From assembly GCA_963833125.1 (NCBI GenBank), contig CAWHWX010000004.1:187249-251248 (forward strand): 64,000 nucleotides of DNA. Reading direction: 5' to 3'. Shown here piece after piece: positions 3,633-35,841 of the stretch (position 1 is its first letter; the number at the start of each line of letters is the position of its first letter). The position numbers were made by a program, and so were the translations under genes. Source of the stretch: Candidatus Bathyarchaeota archaeon. Lineage in GTDB: Archaea; Thermoproteota; Bathyarchaeia; 40CM-2-53-6. The notes under the pieces are model-generated. The model searched no databases. It was not told where the DNA came from and saw nothing but the letters and a program-made list of their open reading frames with translations.

Positions 3633-6600
3633 TTATCGGCGTCTTCTTCGATCCAACATGAACGCTGCGGCTGCACATACGGTTATTGTGGTTAGGGGAA
3701 TAGTTGCGAGCTCAGGTATCGGGATTTGGCTTTCTTCCAGAATGTAGTTGAGTGCATCATTCTGTTCTCCTTGGTTCACGTTAAGCGTGAACATGATTTG
3801 CTGGTGGCCTTCGGTATGGTTCCATTCGGTAATTGTGGTTTGGTAGGTGCCTGGGTTTAGGTATCCGTCAAACCATCCGTCCCACGTGTACCAGTAATAC
3901 TGATACCCAGTACTGTCAACCAGCTCCACCCTTACCCAACTCATCGTTCGGGTTTGATCGTCCCAATTCATTCCAAGTATGATTCCCTGAATGTACCCTC
4001 GTCTGTCTACCTCGAACTCGGCTGAAGCTTCGCCGCTGAGCGGAGCGTTTAGGATTAGAGTGAATCCATTTTGCGCGTATGGTCCGAGGTGGTTGTACGG
4101 GAAGAAGTATGGTGATTCGCCTTGAAGGAGGGCTGGGGCGGGAGGGTACGCAGCGGTTGGCCTGTACCAGTTCACGAAATCAACCATCACCGTCCACGAC
4201 CCGAAGTAACTGCCTGCGTAAGCGCCGCTGCCCCATATTCCATGGTCTGGGGAGAATAGGGTGGCGCTTCGGATGCGGGAAGTTGCGCTGCTGGGTTCCA
4301 CGTAGCTGAACTCCCCTGCGAGGTCCTTGTAGGTCAATAATGTGGTTCCTGCCGGAAGCGCTTGGTTGGTGATTTTGTTTCCGTTTGCGAAGAAGCCGAC
4401 ATTTGATGAGCGGAGGAGTATCCCTGCGTCTGAGGTGAATGAGGTTGTCGCGGCAACTAGCCTGTCTTGGTCATCGAATATGCGGAACCTAACCGACATA
4501 TTGTAAGGTGTTCCCGAAATTATTTTCTCACTCTTGAAGAGAACACTTACTGTCAGGTTTACACCAACTATGAGGTTGACGTGTGTGTCAGCCATTTGGG
4601 CGAGCCATGGGACGGCCACGTAAACGTTTCCAAGGTCACCGAGCGTGACCACGTTCTCTTGCACATACCCATACGTCCACGCATTCAGGGCGTAGGTCCC
4701 CGGGTAAATGGCGAGGTTCGATCTGAATGATGGTAGTCGGTATGAGGTGAAATTGAATAAGAAACCTTCATGGAAGTTTTCTTGTAGGAAATCAAAGGTG
4801 GTCATACTGTTTGCTGGGTCCGTGGAGGGTACATTGGGGAAGTCAGGCCCGATGCTATCTACGCGGACACTCCCGTTTGTCACGAGGTAGCTAGATCCTG
4901 ATCCGTAACCTGTTAACCATCCCGACCATGGGAGGTCCGTGAACCCTGAGTTCTGTTTAGGTATCATCCATTGCAACTGTTTGGCGTTCCAGAAGTTGAT
5001 TACGTCAATGAAGTTCTGTGACGAGATGTCGTACACTAGAACATTCACAGATGTGTCGTTCCACACCCAGTTCCGTTCGACCCTGGGTCTCTCCCAGTCG
5101 GTAGATACTAGAGTGACGTTGATGCTGCCGCCTCTGTACATGTGAGTGCTTGCTGCCACGAGACAGGTCCCGACCGAGACCGTTACTGATAGTGGTTGGT
5201 CTAATTCGTCGAATGACTCTGCTGGCGGAAGGGCCTGGATATAGCCCCGCATGAATAAGCGGACCGTGTACGTATCGGTTGGCAGTCCATAGTCGTATGC
5301 GCCCCTGTATCTGGCGAGTGAATATTTGATTGGTGCTCGCGGGTCGAAGGTGGATATGTGAAGCGGGTCACCAGCCATCCCCAAACCGTTCAGGAGTATA
5401 GACATCTCAGACTTCGACGATGAGACTTGAGTAAAGTTGAATCCTGCCAAGGAGTTGTCTCTCGCGAACGCTTCCGCGATCAGATAGCGTGCTGGGTCAG
5501 GGCCTCCTATCGGAGCTTCCACTAGCGTGGCTGGGTCGTTATGGAAGTGGACTGTGATGTTGACGCCGCATGTTTGTACAATGTCTATTGGTATGTTGGT
5601 GTTATAGGGGCCTATGTCTGGGACGGTGAAGGAGTAATCCACGAAAGTTGTCCCATCAAGAGTAGTCTGAACGTATCCATTCAGGAAGACTCGGATGTAG
5701 TAGGTTCCGGGACTCAGGCTGTTCGTCCATGTCGCGAAGACCTCCGGGACCATTCCTGAGAACTTCGTTGGCACGCCGTAGACGCCCTCCGACCCAAATT
5801 GGAACGTGAACTCCGAGGCTGATGATCCCAGACCGGTGTTTGGGTCGAGATTGCCGCGTGGGTCGACCCACCAGACCTGCGCCGGTCCCACGCCGTTATA
5901 CAACCCGAAAGGATCTCTGATGCCCGGGTTCGTGTACGTGTAGTAGCTTGTGGGACCCTCCCAAGGGAATGCTACCTTTTTCGGGCCCGTTACTCCTGAA
6001 ATTAACCCGCTAAACCCTGTAGCTGAGAAGAATGTATTTCCGTTAACGAACGATGTGTAGGGGGCATTGGTGAGGTTGATGGGGGATTCGGTTTCGATGC
6101 TTGGAACGTCGTAGGATTTACTATTGTAAATGATTACTGAGATTGGCCGTTGGGCTGGCCACGGGATTTCCCCAAACCCTTGTTTGGAGAAAATTGTAGC
6201 TCGCAGTTGAAAGCCAACGTCAAGGTATCCATCAACCTTAAGCGACTGCCCCCGAGTGACCCTTACATTGCTAGCTATCTTCTGTTCGGGAAGCCCAGCC
6301 GCTGATGCGTAGATATCATACACTCCTGGGGCGACACCTTCTATCTCATAGTGGCCCTTAGCGGTTGCGTTGAAGTACCCTCTTGCCTCAACCGCTCGAC
6401 CCGTCGGCTCGTTTGTCAGCGGATCGTTTGCAATCCCGACCGCTCTAACCATTCCTGGTAAGTTGATGGGTTGTCCATAGAGAGTGCTGTTCAGATCTCC
6501 ATACCTGAGGGTGCCCGAGATTATGGCGGGGTCCACTTCGCCCTTTACGAGGAGCACTGGCCAATTCTCCATTGGCATTGTGCCCGCGATCAAATTAGAG

Positions 6601-30035: not shown

Positions 30036-30936
30036 TCACTTGGTCTTTGCCTGTTGAGTCTGAGTATTTGATGGCGGGGTTTGTGATTTGCTCTTTCCTC
30101 TGTAGTGTACTGCGAAAGCGCCGAAGATTATGGCGAGTATTCCAAGGCCGCCTGCAGCTGCTTCTAGCGTTGTATTCGTGTTTTGGTTTGTGCTGAGTTG
30201 CTGGTTCAGGTTGGCGATTGTTGCGTTCCTTTGTGCGATTGTGTTTTGGGCGTTCTGGAGCTGTTGTTGAAGTTGTTGGTTCTGTGCTTGGGTTTGGTTC
30301 AATTGCTGTTCGGCTGTTTGGTACTGTGATTGAAGGGCTACGTATTCAGGGGTTTGGGCTTTGATGTATGATAGCGGGTGCTACTCCGCTGTCTGTCGCG
30401 GTGGAGTAGGAGTTTGATGGGTAGGCGTAGTAGCTGGACGAGTATGGGTAGTAATTGTAACCGTAACCGCAGTATACGTCGTAATAGCAGTAGGCGCTAG
30501 AGGAATTGTAGTTGGCCGGGTAATAGTAGTAGTTCGCGTAGGCTGTCTGGACATTCTCAGTTATGGATGCGAAAAGTGAGGTTCTCGGAGCATTTTGTGG
30601 GACCGTGAACGTAATCTGCTTGTTGAGAGCACTCCCACTGTTCACGTATCCGTTATTGTTTAACGTCGCCGATGTCAGCTGATGAAGGGTGTTGCCATCT
30701 ACGTAGAAAATCTGCGCCGTTAAACTGGCGCTACTGAAACTGTTTTTCGCATTGGCTTGCATGTTGACCGTCACAACGTCACCTGGATTAACCTGCGAAG
30801 GGAAGGTCATTTGAACGGTGAAATAACTCAAATTCACTGTATAGCTAGTTTGAGCTGCTTGGGCATGCGCAACAACTACAACTGATAGAGCCACCATCAG
30901 AATCGGAAAAGCAAGTATTAGCCGCGATGATTTCAT
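30036..30936 (-). CDS. Secreted, membrane-anchored protein with a Tyr-rich segment and a Gln-rich coiled coil (frameshift near 30375)
   Basis: Signal peptide, Ig-like domain, Tyr-rich tract, QQLQQQLQNAQ coil, C-terminal TM; two ORFs joined. Confidence 0.7.
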
Positions 30937-30997
30937 TCTCTTACTTCTCCTGATTGTCTAGTTTGTTACCTCCAGTAACAGTAGGATATAAATATTG

Positions 30998-31005
30998 TTA
31001 CGTAA
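30998..31005. repeat. Target site duplication, left copy (TTACGTAA)
   Basis: Identical 8-mer at 34073-34080, directly outside each terminal inverted repeat. Confidence 0.85.
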
Positions 31006-31066
31006 GGTAACGTTACGTTGTCGGTTGATGAACGAAATTCTTGTGGGTGTTACCGTTCGGTTGATG
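31006..31066 (+). repeat. Left terminal inverted repeat (bipartite)
   Basis: GGTAACGTTACGTTGTCGGTTGAT (31006-31029), 18-bp spacer, TGTTACCGTTCGGTTGATG (31048-31066). Confidence 0.88.
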
Positions 31067-31076
31067 TGGTGTGGTA

Positions 31077-31594
31077 TTAGGGTAGGAAATATTGGACTTG
31101 AAACGTAATCGGGTAAAAGTATGAGGCACCGAAATCCTTGGTACAGGGAACGGTGTGACCTATGACCCAACCTACAGCCCCCGCAAAGCTACTGCTCGGA
31201 AAAGCCGTGACATCAATCAGCCGATAGATGTTGCCATCAGACGCATGCAAGAGTACGCAGCCTCCACTCGTCTGTTCATAAGGCTGAGCCCCAAAATCTA
31301 ACGTGCCTGAGATGCACCTCTCCCCAGTTGACACTGTTACATTAGCGCATGAAGGCGCTAGAGTCTGGATCCAGATTCAGACGGAAGCAGATAACAGTTT
31401 TCTCCGTAGCTCGCTGTCTGCATGGTTTGGGTTACTGTAACAAAACCCGTAACATAGTTTTGTCGAGTTTGCGTCTGGGTCGAAAAAATAGACTGAGTAA
31501 CAAAGACTGGATGAGTTGAAGAATATCCGGCGTATCCGAGACTGGCTAATGCAACCACAAGAAGAGTTATCGTAACGAGAATGCTGGACTTCAA
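31077..31594 (-). CDS. Passenger gene: exported hypothetical protein (frameshift near 31370)
   Basis: Signal/anchor plus Thr-rich linker in ORF 31358-31594, continuing into the Cys-containing ORF 31077-31334. Confidence 0.55.
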
Positions 31595-31623
31595 GGTACG
31601 CTAAGAGTTAACCTTGTTTCTTC

Positions 31624-32773
31624 TTAAGATTTCTTGATATCCTGTTTCGCATTCTGAATTATGGTAAGCCATTTGTCTTTGCCCTTGACTTCTATTCCTG
31701 CTCTCTCAGCAGGGGTTTGACCTTTCAACGCCATGTGTGGGCGTATGTAGTTGTGGTAAATCCGCATACCTATCAAGATTGGTGTGTCGGGTGTTTCTAG
31801 GGTTCGCATAACCTTCTCTCTATCGCGAATTTCTCCGTTGAAGCGTTCCATTTTGTTGTTGTGAACTTGACCGTTCATGCGGATTTCTCTGATGTGTTCG
31901 GTTCCGTTGCCGTCGTGTCCAGAACTCTTTCGTGTACGCTTCGTGAAAGTTCGGTGCACCATCGGTTATTAGGGTCTTAGGCTGTTTGTCTGCAATCGCT
32001 TTTCCTAACTTGAATAGTGGGCGTAGGTCGGCAGTGAATTTAGTGTCAGCTACTTCCTGAGCTATCCAGAATCTTGTTTGGTCGTCCATGAGAGCGTAGA
32101 GGTACTTGAGGTTACCTTTCACTTTCAGAAACACTTCATCCGCACGCCAAGTGTCACTAACATTCGGTGTGATCTTGTCGAGATACTTCTCCATAAGTGC
32201 GGAGTATTTCTTTATCCACATGAACACGGTCTTGTAGCTAACTTGAACTCCAAGCAGCTGCAACGATCTAGCAGTATTCCGTAGGCTCTCACCTGAGAAG
32301 TAGAGTTGCATAGCCGTCGTAATTCCCTGTGGACTATGCTTCATACGCTCGAATCCAATGTTCACGCTGAAAGTCCGGTTACAATCAGCGCATAGGAATC
32401 GCTGTATGTCACCGTATTTGTTGTGTCTGATTCCGAACCTTTTCAATTCCTTATCGGAGTGACAGTAGATACAAGCAGTGATCTCGACAGGTTGAATGAC
32501 TACGTTTTCTCTTACCTTTTCTCGTAACTGTTCTCGTATCTGGCAAGCTATGATATGCTTGCACCGATGGACTTGATGTTGCTCTAAGACTCGGTAGTGG
32601 AAGTCTAAGCAGTTACACAGCCAATAGCCGCTTTCTCTCTTGACCACATCATAACAACCATCCCTACTTTGTGAAGCAACTTTGTAGTGTTGCTCATCCA
32701 TCTGTTGAATTTGGCTCGGATTCTCAGCGATCAATCGCCCCTTTTCTTCACGGGAGAGAACGGCTTGCATCAC
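31624..32773 (-). CDS. DDE transposase, archaeal IS6-like, with N-terminal SWIM zinc finger, C4 zinc ribbon and HTH (frameshift near 31910)
   Basis: CNCLDF...CKH (SWIM); CIYC...CADC; ESLRNTAR HTH; WRADE...ITDG...NNKMERFNG catalytic triad; YHNYIRPH...TPAE. Confidence 0.92.
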
Positions 32774-32784
32774 TCTTTTCCTCT

Positions 32785-32836
32785 GTTACGATATAGTAAC
32801 GCAACATAAATATAAGGCTTGTTACCATATGGTAAT
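32785..32836. promoter_or_regulatory. Divergent promoter with twin palindromic operators
   Basis: GTTACGATATAGTAAC (32785-32800) and GTTACCATATGGTAAT (32821-32836) flank the AT-rich ATAAATATAA (32806-32815). Confidence 0.7.
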
Positions 32837-32846
32837 ATGAAGCATC

Positions 32847-33035
32847 TTGGTACGAAAAGAGATTCTCGGAACCAGCGAAAGGAAAACTCTGGAAGCGTAC
32901 TTGAAAGGGGAACGATTGAAGGGCTACAATGTCCTACTATGGCGCATCCGTCAATTAGGTCTTAAAGCAATCATTGAGGGTTGCGAGAAAGACCTAACTC
33001 TACTCAAGAAGCTCCTGCATAATGGTAAGTCGTGA
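32847..33035 (+). CDS. Small basic helical protein divergent from the transposase (putative element regulator)
   Basis: 62-aa ORF starting 10 bp after the second palindrome. Confidence 0.65.
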   Translation: MVRKEILGTSERKTLEAYLKGERLKGYNVLLWRIRQLGLKAIIEGCEKDLTLLKKLLHNGKS

Positions 33036-33044
33036 AATCTCACT

Positions 33045-33806
33045 ATGGATAGCGTGACCCAGAAGAACAACAATCAACAAGTCAAGGGCAGTCGTCTTGT
33101 TCTCGCAATCGACCTTGCGATTCTTGGCATCTTCTTATTTTCGCTTCTCGCAGCAGGATACAGCTATACCGCATCCAGCACTTATGTTCAAAGTCTGGCT
33201 CAAGGTGAGGCTAATGCCGCGAACATTCCAACTTGGGTTATTGCTTACAATTTCACGACCCAAGATGTGTTCAGTGCATTGAACCCGATAACTGTGGACG
33301 TAATTGTACATGTTTATCCCACTTATTTCAAATCCTACCCAAATGAAACATTTGCAAACTTCCCTCGTATTGTGTACGTCTACTTTCCAGCAGCCATACC
33401 AATTACTGTAACTTACCCTCTAACCGGCCCTGTAACCGTCACTCAAGCACGATATTCTCAGTACGGCGAAATTCTTGGGGCTCCAATGGAGTTAGTGAAA
33501 AGACCCGACAACACTTGGAGAAACAGCACAAAAATAATGTACGCTCAAGAAGGCCAAACTTGTGCATTCCTAAACGTGGAGCAATTGTACTCTGTTAGTT
33601 GCGTAGGTTCTGCCCCTCTTTTGACAATTTCCAGCGTTGCCGCACTCTACCAATTTCAAGCGAACAGGCTAACACTCAGTTTGACATGGTTAGTTTTCGC
33701 ATTCACTGTGATTCTCTGCCGCGACTTCTACCCTGAGTTCGCACGGAACTTTCAGCGGGTCTTGCGAGATCGGCGCGAAAAGACACTACAAGTACTCCCA
33801 ACATGA
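33045..33806 (+). CDS. Passenger gene: hypothetical membrane protein (TM, extracellular domain, TM)
   Basis: 253-aa ORF with N- and C-terminal hydrophobic helices, inside the TIRs. Confidence 0.7.
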   Translation: MDSVTQKNNNQQVKGSRLVLAIDLAILGIFLFSLLAAGYSYTASSTYVQSLAQGEANAANIPTWVIAYNFTTQDVFSALNPITVDVIVHVYPTYFKSYPNETFANFPRIVYVYFPAAIPITVTYPLTGPVTVTQARYSQYGEILGAPMELVKRPDNTWRNSTKIMYAQEGQTCAFLNVEQLYSVSCVGSAPLLTISSVAALYQFQANRLTLSLTWLVFAFTVILCRDFYPEFARNFQRVLRDRREKTLQVLPT

Positions 33807-34011
33807 TTATCAAACCAAAACTGAAAGTTCCTAGACCCAAGCACAGCACAACGGTCGAATAGGCTGCAAGCCAAGGAGTAATTACGAAACCGACCCACAA
33901 CACCATTACGAGCGTACCTAGACATATAGTAAACGGCGCAATTTCACCAAGATTTCGCTCAAACAGCGACCGAGTATTTTTCGTTCACTTTTACGCTTCT
34001 CGCGGACGTTC

Positions 34012-34072
34012 CATCAACCGAACGGTAACAGTCGGATTCTATCCCGCTATCAACCGTGAACGTAACGTTACC
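34012..34072 (-). repeat. Right terminal inverted repeat (bipartite)
   Basis: Inner 19-mer (34012-34030) is the exact reverse complement of 31048-31066; outer 24-mer (34049-34072) matches 31006-31029 at 22/24; same 18-bp spacer. Confidence 0.88.
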
Positions 34073-34080
34073 TTACGTAA
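34073..34080. repeat. Target site duplication, right copy (TTACGTAA)
   Basis: Identical to 30998-31005. Confidence 0.85.
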
Positions 34081-34315
34081 GGTAACGTGAAGTTGTCGGT
34101 TGACCGTTTCCTTTGTGAAAAATCGGTTGATTTGCTACTTCACGGATGAAATCAATCCAGAACCCTTTAGGCATCGGATCAGGATCAGACGACAAACAAG
34201 CTCATGAATTCCACATGGCGATAACATCCTTTTGAACGCTTAGGCAAGAGAAGTCAGCGGACGGTTTGTTACAGCCCCAAGAAATGAGCATAACAGACGA
34301 GGACGTTAAGTTACC
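34081..34315. mobile_element. Putative non-autonomous (MITE-like) or relic element of the same family
   Basis: Begins GGTAACGTGAAGTTGTCGGTTGAC (21/24 to the outer TIR); degenerate inverted end at 34292-34315 (17/24); no ORF. Confidence 0.5.
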
Positions 34316-34367: not shown

Positions 34368-35243
34368 TCATCTCAAGAGCGACCGAGTTTCGACGGAGGA
34401 GTTCGGCCTAGTTCTCCGTCTAAGGACTCCGTACGCGAGCACGGTGAGGACTGCGATTAGCGGTAATCCTAACGGGTATTCAGGGATCGGCGCAACGGGT
34501 GCGCTGAAGGCGGCTCCTACCTCCACCCAAAAGTCGGAGCCTGTTGACCCGCTAATAGTAATTGTTCCCGGGAAAGTGGTTGGAGATGAGAGGGGGTCCG
34601 CAATCTCCACGGCAGAACACGTGTTCGATGGATTGGGGGCGGTGACGTAGGAGAATCCAGAACCCGGGTTAATTGCTTCCATCCCACACAATCCGAGTCC
34701 TACAACCGCGATTAGGAAAGCAGGAGGCGTGAAAGAGGTTGATGAGGTTGCAATCGACGACGATGGGGGCGGACCCGAAGTTCCAGTCCCGGTCGATACG
34801 CTTGGGGGAGTTACTCCGGAGACCTCGAAGAGGTAGACATCAAGAACATTTGCAGCTGGGCCTATGCTCACCGTTACAGTGTCAGAACAAGGACAACCTC
34901 CAGAAGAGATAGTGGCGTAATAGATGGCGGAAGTGAACAACGTCAAAGTACTATCGACAAGCTCAACAGCCTTATTGTAGGAAGAACCGAGGCTGTCCGT
35001 AACAGAAGAGACGGTTTCTAAACTATTTTGAATAAGGATCCCCACGACAACTACATCCCCGCTGGTTACAGGCATCACGAACGCCTTAGAGGCGGTGGTA
35101 ACGAAGGTGGGAATACCACTTTCTTGAGTTGTCTGCTGAACGACCGAAACGCTGGCATGAACTTGGGTAGCCAACAGTACGGGGCCGAACCCAGCTATCA
35201 ACAATGCTGCGAAAATTAACCGAATTATTTGCGGATAGGCCAA
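34368..35243 (-). CDS. Secreted Ser/Thr-rich surface protein with a PEF-CTERM-like tail
   Basis: Signal peptide; C-terminal APIPEYP + TM + RRRTR. Confidence 0.78.
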   Translation of the reverse strand: MAYPQIIRLIFAALLIAGFGPVLLATQVHASVSVVQQTTQESGIPTFVTTASKAFVMPVTSGDVVVVGILIQNSLETVSSVTDSLGSSYNKAVELVDSTLTLFTSAIYYATISSGGCPCSDTVTVSIGPAANVLDVYLFEVSGVTPPSVSTGTGTSGPPPSSSIATSSTSFTPPAFLIAVVGLGLCGMEAINPGSGFSYVTAPNPSNTCSAVEIADPLSSPTTFPGTITISGSTGSDFWVEVGAAFSAPVAPIPEYPLGLPLIAVLTVLAYGVLRRRTRPNSSVETRSLLR

Positions 35244-35314
35244 ACCCAGCTGACTAATGAATCTAGGTTACGCGTTGCGTATATAAGCCCATGTCTCCGC
35301 TGCCGAAGAATCAA

Positions 35315-35841
35315 GGTAACGGTACTGTTGCATTCTAGTCAGTTCTTACGCTTACTGGCGTTCTGAATCAGAGTCAACCACTTGTTTTCACCTTCAATCT
35401 TGATTCCCGCAACCTCAGCAGGAGTTTTTCCTTTCAACGCTTCGTGCGGTCTAATGTAATTGTGAAAGATTTGCATACCTGAAAGAATGGCCGTATCAGG
35501 CTTTTCTAAAGTTCGCATGACCTTCTCTCTTTGACGTAATTCTCCATTCATTCTGTCCATCTTGTTGTTGTGGCGAACTCCGTTGAATGCAATCTCTCGG
35601 ATGTGCTCTGTTCTGTTTGCGATCTTGTTTGTTCGAAATTCTTGTTCGTAGGCTTCGTGAAAGTTCGGCGCTCCATCGGTTATGAGAGTCTTAGGATTCT
35701 TCTCAGCAACTCGTTTACCTTGTTGAATAGAGACCGTTAGGTCGGCTGTGAATTTGGTGTCAGCTACTTGCACTATCCAGAAACGTGTTCGTTCATCTAT
35801 CATGGCATAAAGATACCGAGTCCCGTTTGACCTTGAGGAAT
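35315..35841 (-). mobile_element. Truncated second IS6-like element
   Basis: End-like GGTAACGGTACTGTTG at 35315, just past the stop codon of a transposase C-terminal fragment. Confidence 0.7.
35339..35841 (-). pseudogene. IS6-like transposase C-terminal fragment
   Basis: FLKVK...YLYAM...VADTKFTADL...KTLITDGAPNFHEAY...HNYIRPH, clearly paralogous to 31624-32773; N-terminal half and first catalytic Asp missing. Confidence 0.88.

Follow-up and report, generated by a model that had tools for sequence, protein, structure and literature searches.

A probable cargo-carrying transposon of an archaeal group related to the zinc-finger IS6 branch, and its landing site beside a promoter in a Bathyarchaeota genome

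Results

Organisation of the locus

The stretch of DNA analysed here (the window) comprises 64,000 nucleotides of contig CAWHWX010000004.1 (positions 187,249 to 251,248 of the forward strand) from a Candidatus Bathyarchaeota archaeon, assembly GCA_963833125.1. Within it the segment 31006-34072 is very probably a single insertion of a 3,067-bp cargo-carrying transposon. This belongs to a large group of archaeal elements whose relatives are the IS6 insertion sequences (ISs) of the long branch with zinc fingers. Between two-part inverted ends it holds a transposase gene, a small divergent gene and two side modules, and it lies between the promoter of a host gene and the remains of an older related element (Table 1). 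Loci of relatives are referred to by L numbers and other contigs of the same genome by C numbers.

Table 1. Features of the transposon, its surroundings and cargo of relatives (coordinates refer to the window unless a locus is given; ORF, open reading frame; HTH, helix-turn-helix)
Feature	Position	Strand	Details
Host promoter of the 196-aa gene (30346-30936, minus)	30964..30997	-	TATA box TTTATAT at 30986-30992; points away from the element
Left target-duplication copy, TTACGTAA	30998..31005	.	From repeat finding; an 8-bp direct duplication is the rule in the family
Left end, transposase-downstream side	31006..31066	+	Outer site 31006-31029, spacer 31030-31047, inner site 31048-31066
Module downstream of the transposase gene	31067..31623	-	ORFs 31358-31594 (78 aa) and 31077-31334 (85 aa); unlike the module of the closest relative
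Transposase gene	31624..32773	-	One extra base at 31913; CxC...CxH (SWIM-like), C4 zinc ribbon, HTH, IS6/IS240-type DDE
Divergent control region	32774..32846	.	Shared TATA-like stretch 32806-32815, flanked by two palindromes
62-aa three-helix protein, presumed DNA-binding regulator	32847..33035	+	Conserved slot
Module upstream of the core	33036..34011	+	Orphan 253-aa ORF 33045-33806 with hydrophobic N- and C-terminal stretches
Right end	34012..34072	-	Inner site 34012-34030, outer site 34049-34072
Right copy of TTACGTAA	34073..34080	.	Doubles as the 8-bp spacer to the tip of the neighbouring element
End of older related element, other sub-type	34081..34131	+	GGTAACGTGAAGTTGTCGGTTGAC ... AAAATCGGTTGAT; tip-to-tip with the right end across the shared TTACGTAA
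Remains right of the third end	34368..35803	-	291-aa ORF 34368-35243; C-terminal transposase fragment 35339-35803
Restriction-modification cargo of relatives	L059:2880-4775; L060:2779-4605; L063:1458-4445; L077:1904-4318		One in an Asgard chromosome

Two-part ends and the 8-bp duplication

Repeat finding in the window recovered a 32-nt inverted pair (30998-31029 and 34049-34080) that is 94% matched. The outer 24-mers of the two ends, read on opposite strands, differ at two positions, and this 24-mer was found three times in the window at up to three mismatches, compared with no occurrence in 100 shuffles. The inner sites match perfectly (19/19). The motif CGGTTGAT occurs twice in each end, 36 bp from start to start, and there are three matches to the double motif in the window against a shuffle mean of 0.01. 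An initial annotation of the locus, made from the sequence alone, had described an outer repeat with 22/24 identity, an inner repeat with 19/19, a motif closing both blocks 36 bp apart and an 8-bp repeat directly outside both ends, and all four of these observations are upheld. When the same genome was searched for the 24-mer, as that annotation had proposed, three exact and four near copies were found, while a reversed control gave none. The copies on other contigs have unrelated, differing flanks, and because of this the boundary of the element was set at GG; its tips read GGTAACG, with a GG start and a G at position 7.

The 18-bp spacers between outer and inner sites had been regarded as unconserved. 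This holds for the comparison of the two ends, the spacers of which (31030-31047 and 34031-34048) are unlike each other, yet each is kept among copies of the same end type in this genome and in L015, reading AAATTCTTG..GG and GGATAGAAT.CGAC respectively, and such conservation within each end type suggests that the two ends are functionally distinct. Thirteen nucleotides at 30602-30614, inside the flanking 196-aa gene, repeat a portion of the right outer site exactly (ACCGTGAACGTAA), which is probably due to chance.

A family of related elements

Homologues of the transposase number 5,026 at E <= 1e-3, and the 120 that were listed are 337-404 aa long. They occur in Bathyarchaeia, Nitrososphaeria and other archaea, and among the listed homologues the few that are named by source belong to Bathyarchaeia metagenome-assembled genomes. 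Together with the window, 77 loci from species genomes (Bathyarchaeia, Nitrososphaeria and single Methanoperedens, Methanocellaceae and Asgard records) made up a set of 78. These were scanned for GG tips with at least 10 of 14 arm bases matched that enclose the transposase gene and are bordered by an exact direct repeat of 8 bp. A pair of GG inverted repeats with an exact 8-bp duplication was found in 53 of the 78 loci, at element lengths of 2,031-6,554 bp and with tips reading GGTTCTG or GGTAACG, in which G7 is visible although the scan asked for GG alone. From another 76 loci, taken from metagenomes, and with seven repeats of first-set sites and one duplicate dropped, came 32 further elements of 2,169-6,488 bp (the metagenome set). 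The collection of homologous transposases recommended in the initial annotation has therefore returned like ends and, as described below, varying cargo.

Two-part ends occur across the family, with three sites in L059; when the ends were tested without gaps for a repeat of their outer site, the support was modest, 35 of 106 ends scoring at least 11 as against 9 of 106 shuffled ends. The distance from the end to the start of the transposase gene is 1,299 bp in the window element and about 1.0-1.4 kb in most others. The elements of L021 and L022 are identical at 2,748 of 2,748 bases and have different duplications and unrelated flanks, which indicates that the family moves.

The palindromy of TTACGTAA had been presented as a trait of the element. 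This did not hold up, since palindromes make up only 5 of the 53 duplications in the first set and 7 of the 32 in the metagenome set. The palindromy is incidental and not a property of the element, TTACGTAA being the 8-mer that precedes one recurrent promoter type. Inclusion of TTACGTAA in the inverted repeat was likewise considered and rejected, because the same ends elsewhere have other flanks and most duplications of the family are not palindromes.

Transposase gene

The transposase gene of the window is split into two ORFs, 31820-32773 (317 aa) and 31624-31962 (112 aa). The extra base responsible was located by DNA alignment with L015, the locus of an intact, 96%-identical homologue (P0001) which reads '...EFWTRGNGTEHIREI' at this point, and it does not fall within a homopolymer. 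Undisrupted, the protein would measure about 380 aa. As the gene is frameshifted, the element cannot be called complete with one intact transposase, as had initially been supposed. The window copy as sequenced is without a full-length transposase, the last third of the catalytic domain being out of frame, and is predicted to be non-autonomous.

Assignment of the protein is based on two profiles. Pfam DDE_Tnp_IS240 (PF13610) scores 41.1 bits for the window ORF against a cut-off of 27, and 41-51 bits overall; the match ends at profile position 99 of 139 in the window ORF and reaches 120 of 139 in P0001. The NCBIfam IS6 model (NF033587) covers positions 1-169 of 202 in the window ORF and 1-201 of 202 in P0001. 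It is the best model and is matched over the whole profile (E 1.2e-27), at 96.9 bits, below the curated equivalog cut-off of 125. A SWIM-like CxC...CxH lies near residues 53-73, PF04434 being annotated in some homologues, and a zinc domain of the IS1/IS1595 type was assigned by NCBIfam to residues 100-135.

No intact copy of the family was found elsewhere in the genome, where there are only fragments, mostly of the C-terminal part. Transposase relics on contigs C16, C19, C12, C28, C30, C11 and C1 nearly all retain just the C-terminal 50-120 residues. Since every other copy is a fragment, the family appears to be decaying in this genome, and its one-sided decay could result from adjacent deletions or from repeated insertion at the same sites.

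Small divergent gene and control region

In the divergent control region the palindromes are GTTACGATATAGTAAC (32785-32800) and TTACCATATGGTAA (32822-32835), and sister elements, read by eye, have their own palindrome pair around a central TATA in the same place. The 62-aa protein has 25 invariant columns among nine homologues. Its AlphaFold2 model consists of three helices with a mean confidence (pLDDT) of 87.5, and a fold search of the PDB with this model gave no match at E <= 0.001. It is presumed to be a DNA-binding regulator from its position and by analogy with the RHH-like (ribbon-helix-helix) and AbrB-like proteins of sister elements. In 39 of 53 elements the slot directly upstream of the transposase gene is taken by a small ORF of the opposite strand. 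These ORFs form six BLAST clusters that are mutually unrelated, some of them RHH-like and some AbrB/MazE-like (weak Pfam hits, and by eye). Since the slot is so regularly filled, the 62-aa ORF of the window belongs to the core and is not a passenger, a point that the initial annotation had missed.

Variable modules and cargo

Only the two ends (right 89%, left 83%) and the core (31646-32986, 85%) of the window element align with its closest relative, L015:2533-6294, and it follows that both side modules are swappable cargo. Genes without a role in transposition thus vary inside the inverted repeats of related copies, in the manner of a unit transposon, and the proposal that this is an archaeal IS6-related element carrying variable genes between its own ends is supported. 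The description of the passengers as exported or membrane proteins was not confirmed; it draws on hydrophobic stretches seen by eye in proteins without detectable relatives. A search of 60 related genomes did not find the 253-aa ORF, which has no Pfam or NCBIfam match and a best score in the protein Atlas of 0.77. Four relatives carry large single-chain proteins of restriction-modification type (N6_Mtase, Eco57I, HSDR_N) as cargo.

Outward-reading ORFs of 90-140 aa were observed in the upstream modules of a number of relatives, in two unrelated groups (L035, L041, L055, L057, L061 and L076; L030, L042, L066 and L071). They run through the two-part end to the tip, so that the end sequence encodes their common acidic C-terminus (...TDEE..).

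Position of insertions relative to promoters

Read outward, the left flank of the window element consists of TTACGTAA, CAATA, TTTATAT and an operator-like palindrome, TGTTAC-N5-GTAACA (30964-30980), followed by the 196-aa gene. When 83 flanks were read outward from the duplication and six-base runs of A/T were counted at each start offset, such runs began at +5 in 31 flanks and at +6 in 33, compared with 1-7 at other offsets. The flank consensus, CAAnnTTTATAT, corresponds to a transcription factor B recognition element (BRE) and TATA box pointing away from the element. Of the 53 elements, 39 have an A/T run at +3 to +8 in one or both flanks (six of them in both), as against 9-12 at four control offsets, and this was replicated in the metagenome set (16 of 32, with 0-3 at control offsets). 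There is no bias of orientation, as the flank with the TATA is the one upstream of the transposase in 17 elements and the one downstream in 16.

The same TATA box and palindrome precede Hsp20-like genes in L016, L017, L021, L026 and L053, where ends of the family lie at the identical position and the 8-mer is TTACGTAA, TTACGTCA, TGTCGTAA or TTACGCCA. In the lineage with GGTAAC tips, GTTAC-N5-GTAA is present in all seven TATA flanks compared with one of 38 in other lineages, and in the metagenome set, read by eye, the palindrome was seen in 16 of 16 TATA flanks. The 3.07-Mb genome contains about 12 GTTAC-N5-GTAAC sites; three of the five that are of promoter type are occupied by an end of the family (one read by eye). 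In appearance the palindrome is an operator shared by a small regulon of stress genes.

The Hsp20-like gene of this genome (C16:135793-135890) also has the promoter in question (TTACGTAA CAATATTTATAT ... GTTAC-N5-GTAAC) with a family end at the same position. That the internal operators of the element might equal the host operator at the target was considered and dropped as a general rule, as GTTAC...GTAAC is found upstream of the transposase gene in one of 11 elements of the lineage, that of the window, and the other 10 carry their own, different palindromes there.

Tip-to-tip junctions and the older element to the right

Facing tips separated by exactly 8 bp were found at 20 junctions in 17 loci, and no other spacing between 0 and 44 bp occurred in 726,406 bases of related loci; hits at a spacing of -12 are the palindromic tip matching itself. 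The same 8-mer stands between three or more elements in L028, L030, L033, L051 and L066. Repeated insertion into one promoter-defined 8-mer can explain the spacing, and the order seen in the window, namely promoter, 8-mer, newer element, 8-mer and older relic, fits this reading.

The third end in the window, which was overlooked in the initial annotation, is of the left type and starts directly after the right copy of TTACGTAA; copies of its sub-type are present elsewhere in the genome. The transposase fragment beyond it is 68% identical to P0001 (tblastn). A tip-like sequence, GGTAACGG / GGTAACGGTAC, is located at 35315, and the truncated transposase gene has its stop 24 bp away. As it adjoins the transposase stump, the DNA to the right of 34081 may represent two relics, one consisting of an end with the 291-aa gene and the other of a second element's end with the stump. 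The 291-aa ORF has a signal-like hydrophobic stretch at its N-terminus and a C-terminal hydrophobic segment followed by RRR, resembling a membrane-anchored surface protein, and no Pfam or NCBIfam family matches it.

In L015 the element is flanked by TGTAAGAA and its reverse complement TTCTTACA (L015:2524-2533 and 6294-6303), each between two facing tips, and a third junction on the same contig (L090:2026-2035) has the same 8-mer. It is possible that the inverted 8-mer arose by a flip of the spacer through recombination between facing inverted ends, or by an intramolecular event of the IS6 type. The many relics that keep only the C-terminal part, and the inverted 8-mer of L015, are hints that transposition might be replicative and proceed via cointegrates.

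Discussion

The features described above can be assembled into a sequence of events. The transposase would bind the repeated sites of the ends, cut at the GG tips and join these to the target with an 8-bp stagger. The target would be picked by something bound or bent at the BRE/TATA region and, in the lineage of the window element, the chosen promoters would additionally bear the GTTAC-N5-GTAAC operator. In the window the element would have inserted between the promoter and an older element that was already using the same 8-mer, thereby creating the tip-to-tip junction, and the small protein may repress the divergent promoters through the two palindromes. Put more generally, the family could be steered by the transcription machinery, with the transposase docking at a BRE/TATA bound by TBP and TFB, or at a regulator just downstream, and inserting into an 8-bp target that is separated by 5 bp from the TATA downstream of it. 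The Bathyarchaeia lineage would be restricted to the GTTAC-N5-GTAAC regulon including the Hsp20-like gene, and stress promoters would serve as safe landing pads where stacks of elements accumulate together with defence and orphan genes. We regard this proposal as about as likely to be right as wrong. Docking might perhaps take place through the extra SWIM-like and zinc-ribbon domains. The case for promoter targeting is one of sequence statistics, the same position being used before conserved promoters with different 8-mers in different genomes.

Several observations weigh against the interpretation of the locus given here. At the window itself, TTACGTAA is both a recurrent hot-spot 8-mer and a palindrome, so that its presence on the two sides proves a single insertion less than a random 8-mer would. 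The search for an empty site, which the initial annotation had proposed, found none among orthologs of the flanking gene: the ortholog in a genome of the same genus (L094, 93% identical) is occupied by a different member of the family at the same 8-mer, on a contig that starts inside the element, and the next one (79% identical) has a different promoter. The frameshift is known from one metagenome-assembled sequence. Among public reads, one run contained 12% of the sampled words, but it yielded only three contigs, 161-225 bp long, that lie outside the frameshift and the ends. The passenger ORFs have no detectable relatives and could therefore be non-functional. At the level of the family, a TATA-like run at the expected position is absent from 14 of 53 and 16 of 32 elements (L018, L022, L045, L105 and L118 among them), many of those in the second set sitting within arrays with tips on both sides. 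L022, the identical twin of L021, is not at a promoter, and targeting is therefore a strong preference and not a rule. The counts are not independent and overstate the number of events, because loci come from related genomes and some promoters recur. Finally, a test for outward-reading ORFs did not discriminate between flanks with TATA (34 of 45) and others (27 of 37).

The junctions could also mean that newcomers aim at the tips of residents, a transposase on the resident end directing strand transfer into the adjacent 8 bp, with the TATA being nearby through the chance position of the first resident. All 20 tip-to-tip junctions at exactly 8 bp would be accounted for in this way, as would the ten or eleven elements with tips on both flanks, and, as far as geometry goes, one of the two points of strand transfer is also the point at which the resident itself is cleaved. 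Solitary elements without a neighbouring tip nevertheless keep the TATA offset, those with TATA on one flank and neither feature on the other amounting to 19 of 53. For elements that have a tip beside them on one side, the other flank is TATA-like in 10 of 15 cases in the first set and 12 of 14 in the metagenome set (the latter by eye). The sampled copy, which is presumably the younger, is usually on the promoter side, because loci were sampled by a match to the transposase gene and are mostly near full length. As the 8-bp spacing is also expected, with no need for ends to be recognised, when a promoter-defined 8-mer is used repeatedly, we consider aiming at tips to be conceivable but doubtful, and retain targeting of promoters as the preferred explanation.

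A separate question is whether the frameshift is an error of assembly or consensus, in which case the element would be intact and autonomous. The genome is a draft assembled from a metagenome (completeness 87.8%, contamination 7%), and the well-matched ends and perfect duplication are those of a young copy. An error is unlikely all the same, given that the extra base is outside any homopolymer run and that all other copies in the genome are fragmentary.

With regard to the landing site, proximity to a TATA could instead reflect survival, insertions landing anywhere and only those just upstream of promoters being harmless in compact archaeal genomes. Archaeal intergenic regions are indeed short and 14 of 53 elements are located elsewhere. 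Selection of this kind would, however, allow any distance upstream of the BRE and leave a one-sided tail, whereas the observed peak is 2-3 nt wide. Moreover it is a rare class of promoter that is hit, the motif being found in all of the 7 and 16 TATA flanks of the two sets despite there being only about a dozen such sites in the genome, and this makes survival an improbable explanation. The suggestion that 31006-34072 is a chimera of two array neighbours fused by deletion, its equal 8-mers being supplied by the hot spot, can draw on the presence of TTACGTAA at junctions in L016, L021, L028, L109, L127, L128, L137, L150 and L176 and on the frequency of arrays and deletions in the family, but it is very improbable. 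In L015 the same (85%-identical) core is enclosed by ends of the same two types, their distinctive spacers included, and the 1,299 bp between end and transposase start in the window element are usual for the family.

The window copy is best seen as a defective, ordinary member, the value of which is as a clear example of a stack. For annotation, the family implies that transposon cargo may account for many of the 'hypothetical' genes found next to promoters in Bathyarchaeia and Nitrososphaeria and that contig breaks may mark stacks of these elements. It also offers a system for asking how a transposase reads a promoter of the TBP/TFB type, from which a tool for site-directed integration may follow. 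This large archaeal IS6-like branch is apparently undescribed so far. We found no published description of the architecture or of the target, and the words 'passenger', 'TATA', 'promoter' and 'Bathyarchae' are all absent from the text of a 2026 survey of archaeal ISs (PMC13343696). The excerpt of PMC11529989 mentions five IS-like transposons of Atabeyarchaeia, the organism from which locus L063 derives; they are listed in its supplements, and this list may bear on novelty.

Comparison with known systems

Textbook members of the IS6 family are minimal ISs that move genes only as pseudo-compound transposons, while the archaeal branch holds genes inside its own ends, including restriction-modification systems and orphans, and has a regulator slot that is filled by unrelated small DNA-binding proteins. 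With IS26, IS257, IS6100 and IS240 the archaeal elements have in common GG tips with G7, an 8-bp duplication and a DDE domain with HTH that is probably of the IS6/IS240 type. The excerpts of the two IS6 articles cited here, to which all statements from them are limited, give the tip motif of the family as 'GG..cTGTt' (PMC7986276), which the tips of most archaeal relatives (GGTTCTGTTAA) fit, and describe inverted repeats that begin with GG and have G at position 7 (PMC6807381). The latter source also doubts that archaeal and long bacterial members belong to IS6/IS26 at all. Canonical IS6 elements measure 0.7-0.9 kb (up to about 1.8 kb in the long clades), encode the transposase alone and have ends of 15-20 bp. 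The archaeal elements, in contrast, are 2-6.6 kb long with at least two core genes and cargo, and their ends of about 60 bp contain two sites each. Their transposase of about 380 aa has two extra N-terminal zinc motifs and, unlike in canonical IS6, insertion is probably aimed at promoters.

Zinc-finger extensions are known from clostridial clades h and i (PMC7986276), and the best annotated matches in the plasmid collection belong to the ISCpe7 group (clade h of PMC7986276; clade VII/VIII of PMC6807381), with 28% identity over residues 77-368. This match spans the zinc ribbon, HTH and DDE domains, ISCpe7 being without the first 76 residues that hold the CxC...CxH. The ISCpe7 group is bacterial (Clostridia) and about 1.2-1.5 kb long, and the excerpts describe neither cargo nor two-site ends for ISCpe7. 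ISDsp3 of Dehalococcoides, given there as the only IS6 member with a passenger gene (PMC7986276), resembles the archaeal element in having a non-transposition gene between IS6-type ends. Compared by description only, ISDsp3 differs in being a lone copy from a bacterium, in which one hypothetical gene is carried, whereas the archaeal family has a regulator slot and swappable modules.

Outside the IS6 family, insertion at a fixed short distance upstream of promoters is likewise a property of the TnGBS integrative and conjugative elements, ISLre2 and the ISKra4 group, which have bacterial Mutator-like DDE transposases; according to the excerpt of PMC3942029, TnGBS and ISLre2 insert upstream of sigma-A promoters, TnGBS at 15-17 bp. 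These elements differ from the archaeal family in their unrelated transposase superfamily, in their use of bacterial promoters and in their set orientation, the archaeal elements being unbiased (17 versus 16). Repeated transposase binding sites within each end are known from Mu, Tn7, Tn402/Tn5090 and IS21, which have different transposases; in the archaeal family there are two such sites per end, and three in L059. The yeast element Ty3, a eukaryotic retrotransposon, targets the start sites of RNA polymerase III through TFIIIB, and its positioning by an initiation complex of the TBP/TFIIB type may by analogy serve as the model for what is proposed here. A landing site tied to the archaeal core promoter would make this family the archaeal counterpart of TnGBS in bacteria and of Ty3 in yeast.

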